Of a DNA stretch of 64,000 bases, positions 40,209 to 46,271 are shown piece after piece. This DNA is from Mustelus asterias. Its lineage: Eukaryota. The position numbers and the translations under genes are program-made. The stretch covers positions 80,290,001-80,354,000 of the forward strand of contig NC_135810.1 in assembly GCF_964213995.1 (NCBI RefSeq), written 5' to 3'. Numbering within the stretch: the first letter of the stretch is position 1; the number at the start of each line of letters is the position of its first letter. The notes below the pieces were generated by a model. It saw only the letters and a list, made by a program, of their open reading frames with translations. It was not told the origin of the DNA and did no database searches.

Positions 40209-40572
40209 ACGTGTATGTGTGTGCATGTGTGTGCGCGTGTGTGCACACATGTGTGTGTGCACGTGTATGTGTGCATGCCTGAATGTGTGTGTGTGTATGT
40301 CCGTGGTGTGTGTGTGCCTGCGTGTGTGTGTGTGTGTGTGTGCGCATGCCTGAGTGTGTGTGTTTGTGCGTGCGTGCATGCGTATGTGTGTGCGTGCGTG
40401 TGTTTGTGTGTGCCTTTGTGTGTGCGTGTGTGTGTTTGCGTGTGTATGTGTGTGTGTGTGCGTGCATGTGTAAGTGTGTGCGTGCGTGTGTGTGCCTTTG
40501 TGCATTGTGCGCCTGTATGTGTATGTGTCCATGCGTGTGTGTGTGCCTGTATGTGTATGTATGCGTGCGTGC
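40209..40572 (+). repeat. Imperfect (TG)n/(TGYG)n microsatellite
   Basis: Directly visible; resumes briefly after the CR1 tail (TGTGTGCGTG at 44571-44580). Confidence 0.97.
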
Positions 40573-41105
40573 GGAAAGGGAAGAGAGGGGTTAGGAGAGC
40601 GATAGTGGTGGGGGATGCGTCAGTTAGAGGCACAGACAGGCGATTCTGTGGGGGCGAACGGGACTCCAGGATGGTAGTCTGCCTACCTGGTGCTGGGGTC
40701 ACAGATGTCTCCGAGCGGATAGGAGGCATATTAAAAGGGGAAGATAAAGAAACGGATGTCATTATACACATTGGTGGAAATGACGTAGATAGAAAGAGTA
40801 GGGGGGTCCTAAGAGAGCAATTCAGGGAGTTGGGAAATAGGTTAAAAAGTAGGGTCACTAGGGTGGCCATCTCTGGGCTGCTCCCAATGCCTCGTGCCAG
40901 TGAGGCTAAGAATAGGGAGTTGGTTCAAATGAATGCATGGCTAAAGGACTGGTCCAGGAGGGAGGGCTTTATTTTCATAGACCAAGGTTTGGTTTTCAGG
41001 AGAGGATGGCACCTGTACAAGAGGGAGGGGTCACAACTAAGTTGGAAGGGCACAAATATCCTGGCTGGGAGCTTTGCTAATGCAGTTCGGGGGGGTTTAA
41101 ACTAG
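40573..41105 (+). CDS. CR1 ORF1p C-terminal SGNH/GDSL esterase-like domain (partial)
   Basis: [33 protein letters not shown]. Confidence 0.88.
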
Positions 41106-44029
41106 TATGGCAGGGGGGTGGGGATCAAACTATTAGGTCTATAAGTGTGGTGGCTGGGGACGAGCTTGGGGCTGGGACAAGGTTGGCAAAGAAGGAGAGC
41201 ACTCTGGGGGAGGACGACCTCACTGAGCCTGGAGGTCTGGAGTGCTTATACTTCAATGCAAGGAGCGTAGCAGGTAAAACAGACGAACTTGGGGCCTTAA
41301 TGCGCACGAGGAATTTGGATGTGGTTGCGGTGACAGAGACTTGGTTGAAAGAGGGACAGGACTGGCAGCTGAATATTCCAGGGTACAAGTGTTTTAGGCG
41401 AGACAGAGGAGGGACCAAAAGAGGTGGGGGAGTAGCGGTATTGGTTGGAGAGCATATTACAGCGGTGCAGAGGGAGGACAATTCGGAGGAGTCGTGTAGC
41501 GAGTCACTCTGGGTGGAGCTTAGAAACAGGAAAGGCGCAGTCACTATGTTGGGGGTGTACTACAGGCCCCCCAACAGCCCAAGGGAAGTGGAAGAATGGA
41601 TATGTCAGAAGATACTGGATAGGTGCAGGAAATATAGGGTTGTTGTAGTGGGAGACTTCAATTTCCCTGGTATAGACTGGAAATCGCTGAGGGCAGGGAC
41701 TCTGGATGGGGAGGAATTTGTAAAATGTGTACAGGAGGGTTCGTTGGAACAATATGTGGACAGCCCAACTAGAGAGGGGGCTATACTGGACCTGGTACTG
41801 GGGAATGAGCCCGGTCAGGTCTTCAAAGTTTTGGTTGGGGAACATGTGGCAAATAGTGACCACAATTCTGTTAGCTTTAGGATAGTGATGGAAAAGGATG
41901 AGTGGTGTCCCAAGGGTAAGGTGTTGGATTGGGGGAAGGCTAACTTTATTGGGATCAGGCAGAAATTGGCAGCTCTTGATTGGGAGAGGCTGTTTGAGGG
42001 TAAATCCACATCTGGTATGTGGCAGTCTTTTAAGGAACGGTTGTTAGGGCTATAGGACAAGCATGTGCCTGTAAAAAAGAAGGATAGGAAGGGTAGGATT
42101 AGAGAACCGTGGATAACCAGGGAAATTGAGGGACTGGTCAAAAGGAAAAGAGAGGCACATGTTAGGTCCAATCAGCTAAAAACGGAGGGAGCTCTGGAGG
42201 AGTACAATGAAAGTAGGAAAATACTCAAACGGGGAATTAGAAGAGCAAAAAGGGGTCACGAAATGTTCTTGGCAGACAGGATTAAGGAGAATCCCAAGGC
42301 ATTTTATTCATACATTAGGAACAAAAGGGTTGTTAGGGAAAAAATCGGACCTCTCAGGGACAAAAGTGGGGACTTATGCTTGGAGCCCAAAGAGGTAGGG
42401 GAGATCCTAAATGAATACTTTGCGTCGGTATTCACAAAGGAGAGGGATGTGTTGACTGGGAGTGTCTCGGAGGGGAGTGTTGAACCGTTGGAGAAAATCT
42501 CCATTACAAAGGAGGAAGTGTTAGGTTTGTTAGAGAATATAAAGACTGACAAATCCCCAGGGCCTGATGGAATCTATCCAAGGCTGCTCAGGGAGACGAG
42601 AGGTGAAATCGTTGGGCCTCTGACGCAAATCTTTGTCTCGTCACTGGACGCAGGTGAAGTCCCAGAGGATTGGAGGATAGCCAATGTGGTCCCGTTATTT
42701 AAGAAGGGTAGGAAGGATAACCCGGGTAATTATAGGCCGGTGAGCTTGACGTCCGTGGTGGGGAAGTTGTTGGAGAAGATTCTTAAAGATAGGATGTATG
42801 CGCATTTAGAAAGAAATAAACTCATTAACGATAGTCAACATGGTTTTGTGAGAGGGAGGTCATGCCTCACTAACCTGGTGGTGTTTTTTGAAGAAGTGAC
42901 CAAAATGGTTGACGAAGGAAGGGCCGTGGATGTTGTCTATATGGACTTTAGTAAAGCGTTTGACAAAGTCCCTCATGGTAGGCTAGTGAAAAAGGTTGGA
43001 TCCCATGGGATAAAGGGGGAGGTGGCTAGATGGGTGGAGAACTGGCTTGGTCATAGAAGACAGAGGGTGGTAGTGGAAGGGTCTTTTTCCGGCTGGAGGC
43101 CTGTGACTAGTGGTGTACCGCAGGGCTCTGTATTGGGACCTCTGCTGTTTGTGATTTATATAAATGATCTGGAAGAAGGAGTAACTGGGGTGATCAGTAA
43201 GTTTGCGGACGACACAAAACTGGCAGGACTTGCAGATAGTGAGGAACATTGTCAGAGGCTACAGAAGGATATAGATAGGCTGGAAATTTGGGCAAGGAAA
43301 TGGCAGATGGAGTTCAATCCTGATAAATGCGAAGTGATGCATTTTGGTGGGAATAATGTAGGGAGGAGCTACACGATAAATGGAAGAACCATAAAGGGTG
43401 TAGAGACGCAGAGGGACCTGGGTGTGCAAGTCCACAGATCTTTGAAGGTGACGTCACAGGTGGAGAAGGTGGTGAAGAAGGCATATGGCATGCTTGCCTT
43501 TATAGGACGGGGCATAGAGTATAAAAGTTGGGGTCTGATGTTACAGATGTATAGAACGTTGGTTCGGCCGCATTTGGAATACTGCGTCCAGTTCTGGTCG
43601 CCACACTACCAGAAGGACGTGGAGGCTTTGGAGAGAGTACAGAGGAGGTTTACCAGGATGTTGCCTGGTATGGAGGGGCTTGGTTATGAGGAGAGATTGG
43701 GGAAACTGGGGTTGTTCTCCCTGGAAAGACGGAGGATGAGGGGAGACTTAATAGAGGTGTATAAAATTATGAAAGGCATAGATAGGGTGAACGGTGGGAA
43801 GCTTTTCCCCGGGTCGGTGGAGACGTTCACGAGGGGTCATAGGTTCAAGGTGAAGGGGGGGAGGTTTAACACAGATATCAGAAGGACATATTTCACACAG
43901 AGGGTCGTGGGGGCCTGGAATGTGTTGCCGGGCAAGGTGGTGGAGGCGGACACACTGGGAACATTTAAGACTTATCTAGACAGCTATATGAACGGAGTGG
44001 GAATGGAGGGATACAAAAGAGTGGTCTAG
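41096..44029 (+). pseudogene. CR1 ORF2 (APE endonuclease + reverse transcriptase) with a single in-frame TAG at 42053-42055
   Basis: ORFs 41147-42055 and 42065-44029 are in the same frame; YFNARS, TETW, GDFN, SDH, QHGF, GVPQGS, FADD all intact. Confidence 0.95.
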
Positions 44030-44221
44030 TTTGGACCAGGGAGCGGCGCGGGCTAATTGTTCCTTGTTTCTCGTTTCAAGGCTTCATTCTATGATCATCT
44101 TGCTGGTGCCAGTACAGAGCGAGACTGCGGATAGTTGGGAACCTGTCTCGGGGGCAGGGAATTCATATGGTGTTCGTGGAAGTGGAAATGACTAGGGTTG
44201 GGAAGCATTTTCCGATCAGGG

Positions 44222-44351
44222 CCATTGTGATCTCCTGGACTCGTTTCGATCGCCTCAGGGGGTCGGAGAGGAATTTCCCAGATTTTTTTTCCCCATATTG
44301 GCCCTGGGGTTTTTCACTCTGGGTTTTCGCCTCTCCCTGGAGATCACATGG
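44222..44351 (+). other. Predicted multi-stem RNA structure in the CR1 3'UTR
   Basis: Nested pairings TGTGATCTCC/GGAGATCACA, GGAGAGG/CCTCTCC, CCCAGA/TCTGGG, CCCCA/TGGGG and side hairpin GATCGCC/GGGGGTC. Confidence 0.75.
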
Positions 44352-46271
44352 TCTGGAATGGGGGGGTGGGGGTGAGTTAATAGGTTGTAATGAACAAAGC
44401 ATCGTAGCTGTGAGGGACAGCTCGGTGGATAGGATATTGGTATGTAGATAGGCTGGAAAATTGGGCGGGGATCCTGGATTCAGGATTCAATTCTGGACCG
44501 GGGAGCGGCGCGGGCTTGGAGGGCCGAAGGGCCTGTTCCTGTGCTGTATTGTTCTTTGTTCTTTGTTCTTTGTGTGCGTGAGGTGCCACATTTCTTATTA
44601 TTTTGTTCTTGGGTTTAGTGGCTAATAAACTTGCTCTTTCTTTGACTCAAGAAAGCCTCGTTGATTGGCTCCTTATTGTTCACTGCATAGATAGTAAAAC
44701 AAAAATGGATTTACAAATACATCTATGTGGAAAATAAATTTAAAAACCTTTGTTACGACTAACCCAGGAGGCCGGATACAGGAGGGAGAGTACACTCCTC
44801 CTCATCTAGTTGTGACAATGTCAAGGAACTGATACTGAGGCAGGATTCCATCTAATAACATCATAATCTTTTCTCTCTTGGTTTATGAATGGTCTGACCT
44901 TTGAAATATGAATACAGACTTTAATCCATTCTTGTGTTATTTGACTTGGTCCCAGTCATCGTTATTGAGCACATAACACACATGAAAGATTCAGATATGT
45001 TAAAACCAGAGAAAAGTTGATGTAGTTTTCACCATCATAACCCAGCAACTAATTTTGAAATACCTTTGCAGTTTGTATCCTCAATTTATATGTTCTATTA
45101 TTTCCATTGAAAAAATTCCATTCACTTTTTTCTATTTTTGCAGGAGAAGTGGAAGTCTTATTGTCAGTGTTCCAGATAATAACAATCGTTTGTGCCGAGA
45201 GAGACCATCATTCCTTTGGGCTGTATGCTCTTCACTGAGCTATTTTATAGGTGAATAATTGAAAATCATATTTCTCCATTCCGTGGAAAGCCACTCAGTA
45301 AGGAACCACTCAAATAATACAGCTGTTGAACCCAGCAGAATGTGGTTTCGTAAATAGTAGGGGTGGTGGAAGTCCTAATCTCTTAAGTCTGAAACAACAA
45401 TCAGGAACAGTCTGGGCTAGAGAACATAGCTCTGACTGAGTATCCAACGAGAATCAGTTAATTTGGAAGTGTTCTCATTTGGATGATTCTGATTAGCATT
45501 CTTTCAGAGCCCAACAGAGATGAAGGAATTTCAGGAATTGGAAGAGGTTATTTCACCAACTAATTATTTTTTTCCAAAGATTAAAATCAGTTAAACTTCT
45601 GCATTCCAGAATTGCATGTCTCGCTTGCATGAGCGGCAATGGTATTTTCAATTGTGGAAATTCTTAGGGAAATTCCCTTCATAGTCAATTATACCTTCTA
45701 GATAATGCCTCTTACAGGCATCAAAGCAGTTTCCTGAAGCTTTCTCCTAACCTAAATTCCTGATACCTGAAATCATCTTTGTTGCTTACCCCCTTCTATC
45801 TTGGGTAATAATATCCTTTCTATAGGTAGGGAGCTAGATCTAAATGCAATACTGTTGATGGTCTCAATTTTCCCACATGTTAATTTATTACAAATAAAAA
45901 GGGAGGGTATTGGAGGGTAAATCCATTTAATTCCCACTTTATTATCTGTAAATTAAGCCATTAGTTAAAGTGCTCGGACAGCAAAGGGACAGATAAGGGA
46001 GAGTCACCTGCAACTTTCACGGGAAAATTATATTTCCACAAGCAAGAGCTATTAGTTTGTGATTATATTGAAATATACAGCTGAAGGTTTTTTAAATACT
46101 GCAAGGAAGAATTTAAAAGATTTAACCTGAAATAAGAGTGCACATCTACAGAACATGACTCCAATGTAATTTTAACAAACCTCAAGCAAGAGAGAGTCAC
46201 AGATTCTCACATGGAGGTGTGCACATGGGGGATAGCTTCCCAGATAAACCAGCTTATGTTCGAGAAGATTT

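Follow-up and report, generated by a model that had tools for sequence, protein, structure and literature searches.

A putative programmed -1 frameshift site between the two reading frames of esterase-type CR1 elements

How does a long interspersed nuclear element (LINE) express its second open reading frame (ORF2) when no in-frame start codon precedes the first conserved motif of the encoded endonuclease? This question is raised by a 5'-truncated CR1-type copy on the plus strand (40573 to 44571) of a 64,000-nucleotide stretch of Mustelus asterias DNA (NCBI RefSeq assembly GCF_964213995.1, contig NC_135810.1, positions 80,290,001 to 80,354,000), hereafter the window. Translation of ORF2 in LINEs is described as unclear in a passage of PMC3708506. 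Sequence comparison of this copy with its relatives suggested, with a probability of about 0.8, that esterase-type CR1 elements rely on programmed -1 ribosomal frameshifting at a slippery heptamer for the synthesis of ORF2, as a fusion of open reading frame 1 (ORF1) and ORF2 that is produced at a low ratio to the ORF1 protein (ORF1p). What the sequences themselves show is a heptamer in register next to a stop codon, an open -1 linker, a lack of usable start codons in several families and nucleotide conservation, which includes a downstream G-tract.

The heptamer at the ORF1-ORF2 junction

In the window copy, ORF1 ended with GGT TTA AAC TAG at 41094-41105, so that T_TTA_AAC (U_UUA_AAC in the RNA; 41096 to 41102, plus strand) was in the X_XXY_YYZ register, an assignment based on sequence and conservation. 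It was directly followed by the ORF1 stop codon TAG (41103 to 41105), which is replaced by TAA or TGA in other families. The -1 frame was open from 41081 to 42052 and contained, between the heptamer and endonuclease motif I (41096 to 41248), a linker of 51 codons that was free of AUG and stop codons. Motif I (YFNARS) occupied 41249-41266, and the first in-frame ATG was encountered only at 41300. A nearer ATG, at 41107, lay in the third frame and opened 9 codons. Runs of six and four G residues followed at 41113-41118 and 41120-41123. These features (the heptamer in register before the stop, the open -1 frame with its late AUG, the nearby AUG out of the ORF2 frame and the G-runs) were all as stated in the original prediction. 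Based on endonuclease codon usage, a given codon pair would by chance hold one of the canonical heptamers in register with p ~0.002, and TTTAAAC with p ~6e-5. Other matches to TTTAAACTAR in the window (2492 and 18914, minus strand) did not represent ORF junctions. An overlapping heptamer, G_GGU_UUA, was also in register in the window; its upstream bases varied among copies (GGT, AGT, GAT, GCT, ACT, TCT), and it was therefore rejected as a conserved unit.

Related loci were gathered by an endonuclease-motif pattern, Pfam score and divergent queries. When the genome of the window was searched with a pattern that consisted of the flanks only, TTTAAAC was intact at 1487 of 1546 sites. The master element of the window family carried TTTAAAC; since copies decay neutrally, this proportion is not in itself evidence of selection. 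In segments anchored on the DGxHL motif of the esterase (148 segments from 173 of 275 loci; the queries for loci L001-L060 contained the junction), TTTAAAC followed by TAA, TAG or TGA was found in 130 of the 139 segments from the same genome.

Synonymous positions were compared in a codon alignment of ORF1, for which 20 representatives were intended, 5 were dropped and 2 distant ones were kept out of the count. The aligned copies had been chosen as heptamer-bearing, which was justified at the family level by the DGxHL-anchored count. Among the 13 vertebrate-type representatives, the third base was invariant in 7 of 147 ORF1 codon columns, three of which were consecutive and located at the heptamer. 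TTA and AAC were each present in 13/13, and the codon preceding TTA always ended in T while coding for A, D, G, S or T. The remaining 9 conserved Leu columns used 2-5 codons each and the other two Asn columns used both codons. In a control alignment of the endonuclease (12 representatives; 6 of 18 groups dropped), an invariant third base occurred in 0 of 193 columns and a single codon in 0 of 44 conserved columns. The conservation of heptamer and register across families, at synonymous positions, that frameshifting calls for was thus observed, and the CR1 junction signal is real, conserved and probably functional.

The same arrangement was encountered in other lineages. All eight bird-like CR1 junctions from metagenome contigs, a label assigned by sequence likeness, read TTTAAAC-TAG. 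Among matches in the PMC13343379 supplement, inspection by eye placed 11 of 12 'tttaaactag', 6 of 8 'tttaaactaa' and 1 of 3 'tttaaactga' at an esterase ORF end, in a search that indicates presence only (cut cells, gappy consensus sequences, no denominator). The codes of these entries were read as alligator, crocodile, bearded dragon, bullfrog, coelacanth, bowfin, chimaera, sharks, rays and one teleost 'Crack'. ORF1 proteins from snake and turtle had RALN as their last residues, and the LN end was invariant in vertebrate-type ORF1s. In the same supplement, the consensus sequences SquAca_CR1-3 and CR1-18 also carry GGTTTAAAC plus TAG or TAA in the 5' untranslated region (UTR), upstream of ORF1.

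Of 55 loci (L161-L215), the majority broke off short of the junction or lacked an endonuclease behind the esterase, and 10 were usable. Two distant elements among these loci, from metagenome contigs and with an ORF2 identity of 28-39% to vertebrate-type elements, carried G_GGA_AAC-TAG (L168) and G_UUA_AAC-TAG (L161), in both cases with a -1 frame that was open through the endonuclease into the reverse transcriptase (RT). The heptamers U_UUA_AAC, G_GGA_AAC and A_AAA_AAC, named among the most shifty in a passage of PMC5009743, encode LN, GN and KN, respectively. Of 149 distant ORF1 proteins collected, 106 had a match that reached close to the end of the profile, and 86 terminated no more than 8 residues from that point; the C-terminal ends of these 86 were LN in 48, GN in 10, KN in 1 and other in 27, against a background of 1.1% for LN, GN, KN or PN ends. 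In reading these counts, it should be considered that the ORF1 profile favours LN, not GN, that some of the proteins are near-duplicates and that DNA was available for one GN-ending element only. The distant ORF1 esterases P0090, P0106, P0138 and P0163 ended in FFH, FFR, FFR and FFN, respectively, ends that could conceal a U-rich heptamer with one codon between it and the stop. One shark-type CR1 ORF1 (P0017) is deposited as Pseudomonas aeruginosa, an entry that probably reflects contamination. No matching elements emerged from an initial scan of metagenomes or from two scans of viral contigs, and a GTDB scan yielded 3 esterase-like loci, none with a downstream endonuclease.

Reading frame, start codons and downstream sequence

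Among 136 junctions in which motif I was found, 105 were in the -1 register, and 99 of these 105 were open. No AUG preceded motif I in 65 of the 99 open linkers. In the window's own cluster, 40 of 44 junctions were in the -1 register and 39 were open; 34 of these 39 had no in-frame AUG before motif I, in agreement with the earlier description of ORF2 as AUG-less. Upstream of the heptamer, the -1 frame was open for just 1-5 codons in most clusters, too short a stretch to house a start for ORF2. The linkers of 18 representatives, chosen for an open -1 frame, had 12 different lengths (104-359 nt) that were all 2 mod 3, and their other two frames contained 1-17 stops each. The APE endonuclease of the window copy (41249 to 42052; PF03372, E 5e-15, and PF14529), whose motif I precedes the earliest in-frame AUG, could be aligned to residues 13-150 of the L1 endonuclease. 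Initiation at this AUG would cut off the part that aligns with residues 13-30; Asn14 of the L1 endonuclease is essential.

Folding of the downstream RNA, a check named in the original prediction, did not support a hairpin or pseudoknot stimulator: the representatives had no fold in common, and no stem-loop or pseudoknot at 5-9 nt from the heptamer was found to be conserved among them. In 100-nt folds, one of 20 representatives reached z -3.0. Folding was done with ViennaRNA, whose model does not include pseudoknots, and the downstream 100 nt were C-poor. An Rfam search of the junction returned one chance match only.

What was conserved instead was a G-tract, GGGGG-N2-GGG (41113 to 41122, plus strand), at positions +11 to +20 after the heptamer, and thus at a spacer of 10 nt. 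Among 21 representatives, G was kept at +11 in 19, at +12 to +14 in 21, at +15 in 19, at +18 in 19, at +19 in 20 and at +20 in 19. This conservation included third codon positions, and the linkers diverged beyond it. For comparison, the 219 Gly codons of the endonuclease included 74 GGG, and GGGG-N1-3-GGG occurred only 1-3 times per whole ORF2 (three ORF2s), with the first occurrence always at the junction. A two-tier G-quadruplex was predicted for 9/11 shark, 2/8 bird-like and 0/2 distant representatives. A C-rich partner for the G-tract in the 3' UTR was not seen by eye in shark 3' ends, for which no systematic duplex scan was made. These data suggest that the stimulator probably consists of the stop codon and the G-tract at +11 to +20, not of a local hairpin or pseudoknot, although this is the least certain part of the proposal. 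The candidate tract might act as a protein-binding site or as a weak two-tier G-quadruplex.

In the proposed mechanism, the majority of ribosomes would terminate at UAG and release ORF1p. A minority would slip from UUA-AAC to UUU-AAA and continue in the -1 frame. For the window family, the predicted trans-frame product would read ...GGLN-LVWQGGG..., followed by the variable linker, the endonuclease and RT, and the slipping minority would set a gag-pol-like ratio. This ORF1-ORF2 fusion by programmed -1 frameshifting, as the original prediction had inferred, is supported by the conservation of the heptamer and the AUG-poor linkers. More speculatively, heptamer, stop and G-tract at a 10-nt spacer may form one ancient cassette that predates the jawed-vertebrate split, its G-tract either binding a trans-acting protein (ORF1p or a host G-run binder) or being a natural G-quadruplex; this extension is possible but doubtful. 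If it were true, the retrotransposon that dominates in many vertebrates would use a regulated, structure-free -1 frameshift to produce a fusion of esterase, endonuclease and RT.

Several observations weigh against the frameshifting mechanism. The representatives are related, and the conservation counts are therefore not independent events. No shared hairpin was found over the 60 nt downstream (z -1.5 to +1.5, 21 representatives), and 27 of the 86 distant ORF1 ends were not slip-compatible. An in-frame AUG was present in 34 of the 99 open linkers: at linker codon 48 in 18/18 copies of family F12 and at codon 4 in 4/8 bird-like copies, while a SART1-like TAATG occurred in L140/L101. In addition, 31 of the 136 junctions were outside the -1 register, many of which are probably decayed copies. 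Of the 24 copies in family F2, 12 were in the -1 frame, and 7, among which were 5 of the 6 copies of one subgroup, were one G short while keeping the heptamer, with the result that the -1 frame closes early. In this subgroup (L254, L256, L266, L273 and L274), heptamer and TAA were kept and the G was lost in the downstream run. Its copies have an AUG at codon 74, from which ORF2 could be translated after reinitiation; alternatively, they could be non-autonomous and copied in trans.

Alternative explanations

The start codons listed above are those on which termination-reinitiation at the ORF1 stop would draw. According to this alternative, which we consider unlikely, ORF2 is initiated via a nearby AUG or AUG-independently, the heptamer and G-tract are reinitiation signals, and a free ORF2 protein (ORF2p) is made. 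It has a precedent in the UAAUG coupling of SART1 (PMC3708506, in part), L1 ORF2 is thought to initiate independently of its AUG (a passage of PMC5009743), and the failure to find a local stimulatory structure is in its favour, as are the TAATG, codon-4 and codon-48 starts and the AUG at codon 74 of the out-of-frame F2 subgroup. However, the position of a start codon was conserved nowhere, an AUG at or near the stop occurred in a minority only, and linkers were open in the -1 register from the heptamer onwards even when the AUG was 48-74 codons downstream. Moreover, reinitiation leaves unexplained why the constraint takes the X_XXY_YYZ form and why the heptamer was swapped for G_GGA_AAC.

Very unlikely is slippage of RNA polymerase or reverse transcription, or another role of the nucleic acid, by which a minority of transcripts would gain a base and so have both frames fused. 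G-run lengths beside the site did differ among copies, and one natural copy (L121:843-4715, minus strand; G000:C12) had a continuous ORF1-ORF2 frame of 1290 aa, owing to an additional G within ORF1, some 20 codons upstream of the heptamer; this was one copy only, and it could be an assembly error. The T3 and A3 runs are short, however, and the conserved unit is bound to codon register. Four RNA runs listed no indel at the heptamer, which is weak evidence as these runs consisted of contigs with a small share of words, in which neither translation nor strand is visible. A search for natural esterase-APE fusions returned 11 longer proteins, of which the 4 examined were gene-model joins or other arrangements, none of them a clean in-frame fusion.

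Protein constraint alone, by which an ORF1p C-terminal LN and an ORF2p FKL..G.G motif would freeze the overlapping codons, is highly improbable: LN is invariant among vertebrate-type ORF1s, but the constraint requires -1 translation across the heptamer, where most clusters have 1-5 open codons and no upstream start, and GN/GKL and LN/VKL variants occur. Splicing of an ORF1 start to ORF2, with the AG of the stop as acceptor, has as little to recommend it, since, although CTAG is a YAG and ORF1 continues into the -1 frame at the heptamer site in a predicted stork gene model (P0206), TAA and TGA families have no AG (which rules out the splice acceptor that had been named as a possible source of ORF2), a pyrimidine tract is absent and no joint ended at the site in the four RNA runs, as far as their contigs go. 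A non-GT joint from 41122 to 41337 in a single RNA contig was set aside.

The window copy and comparison with known systems

The element is a CR1-type LINE with an esterase ORF1, assigned by its domain layout and by the likeness of its junction to CR1-labelled sequences in the supplement of PMC13343379. Its CR1-type features comprised an ORF2 with an APE endonuclease followed by RT, a short tandem-repeat 3' end (terminal GTTCTTT repeats in the 3' UTR) and 5' truncation. Close copies carry different sequence, belonging to ORF1, upstream of about 40573; the truncation at this point leaves the window copy without an ORF1 start codon. The C-terminal ORF1 remnant, an SGNH/GDSL esterase (40575 to 41105, plus strand; ending in ...GGLN-stop), matched PF13472 with E 1.8e-7 and 32.2 bits, against a Pfam cut-off of 32.9 that was exceeded by the scores of its relatives. 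Complete ORF1s of relatives measured 343 aa from stop to stop, and the named ORF1 relatives were from sharks and rays. In a short ORF1 block (40986-40991), the window copy departed from its relatives with its frame unchanged.

Reading-frame analysis identified a premature ORF2 stop at 42053 to 42055 that was not common to related RNA contigs (3 runs). The remainder of ORF2, including the reverse transcriptase (PF00078, E 9e-38), extended from 42056 to 44029. Owing to the 5' truncation and the premature stop, the window copy cannot function itself, and the junction signal is a property of its family. A short motif of the 3' UTR was present twice, and about 450 extra bases lay between its two copies (44055-44500), which were absent from relatives L276 and L277 and had 29 matches in the window's genome; this extended 3' UTR marks a small sub-lineage. 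The insertion site was within or beside a (TG)n microsatellite. At the 5' junction, this degenerate repeat (~360 bases, 40210-40572) generated spurious long ORFs on both strands, and a 299-aa 'ORF1' reading frame in the window consisted mostly of its sequence.

In chicken, 11.8% of the genome consists of CR1 (PMC11835228), and in most vertebrates no other group of retrotransposons is as dominant (PMC13343379). No published report of -1 frameshifting in CR1 was found in the literature searched, which excludes the early CR1 papers of 1997-2003 and Repbase entries; early CR1 papers may already mention the ORF overlap. The accessible part of PMC13343379 contained no statement on frameshift, start codon, overlap or translation, and a statement on CR1 frameshifting was not found in the accessible parts of PMC2734521, PMC11835228, PMC4255032, PMC4120745 and PMC3905857. 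The first 300,000 of the 449,034 characters of PMC5009743 did not mention CR1, and the supplement of PMC4316615 (Suh 2014), to the extent available, covers 3' ends only. The CR1 junction is thus probably a -1 frameshift variant in a LINE group for which no such report was found, and one in which the G-tract would replace the usual structure. If true, CR1 ORF2p is wrongly delimited in annotations, RT is tethered to ORF1p and its membrane-binding esterase, and vertebrates have one more conserved -1 site, with an unusual candidate stimulator.

Among LINEs, SART1, with its UAAUG coupling, and mammalian L1 face the same problem of expressing ORF2 from a bicistronic RNA. Whereas they give a free ORF2p, CR1 has no conserved start position and its frames overlap at a slippery site. 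The two ORFs of Drosophila R1B share 14-59 bp, with ORF2 in the -1 frame relative to ORF1 (PMC2718515); R1B belongs to another clade than CR1, and the passage in question names neither shift site nor mechanism. The APE-type non-LTR (long terminal repeat) elements TRE5-A and TRE3-A of Dictyostelium need a -1 frameshift for ORF2 according to a figure legend in a review (PMC5911963), but these amoebal elements are of another group.

With respect to the stimulator, passages of PMC5009743 describe long spacers of 11-14 nt, as opposed to the usual 5-9 nt, for the protein-stimulated sites of arterivirus nsp2 and of cardioviruses, and a trans-acting protein for the arterivirus site. The 10-nt spacer of CR1 is nearer to 11-14 nt than to the usual 5-9 nt. 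In arterivirus, PCBP is bound by a C-rich motif (PMC4937337, in part), whereas the CR1 motif is G-rich. Natural G-quadruplex-stimulated frameshifting was not known in 2016, according to the same passages of PMC5009743. With the classical, structure-stimulated viral -1 sites, CR1 shares the heptamers and their register (PMC5009743, in part) and the fusion of a structural to a polymerase ORF. It differs from them in being a non-LTR element without a conserved hairpin or pseudoknot 5-9 nt downstream, in which a stop codon immediately follows the heptamer and a G-tract begins at +11.

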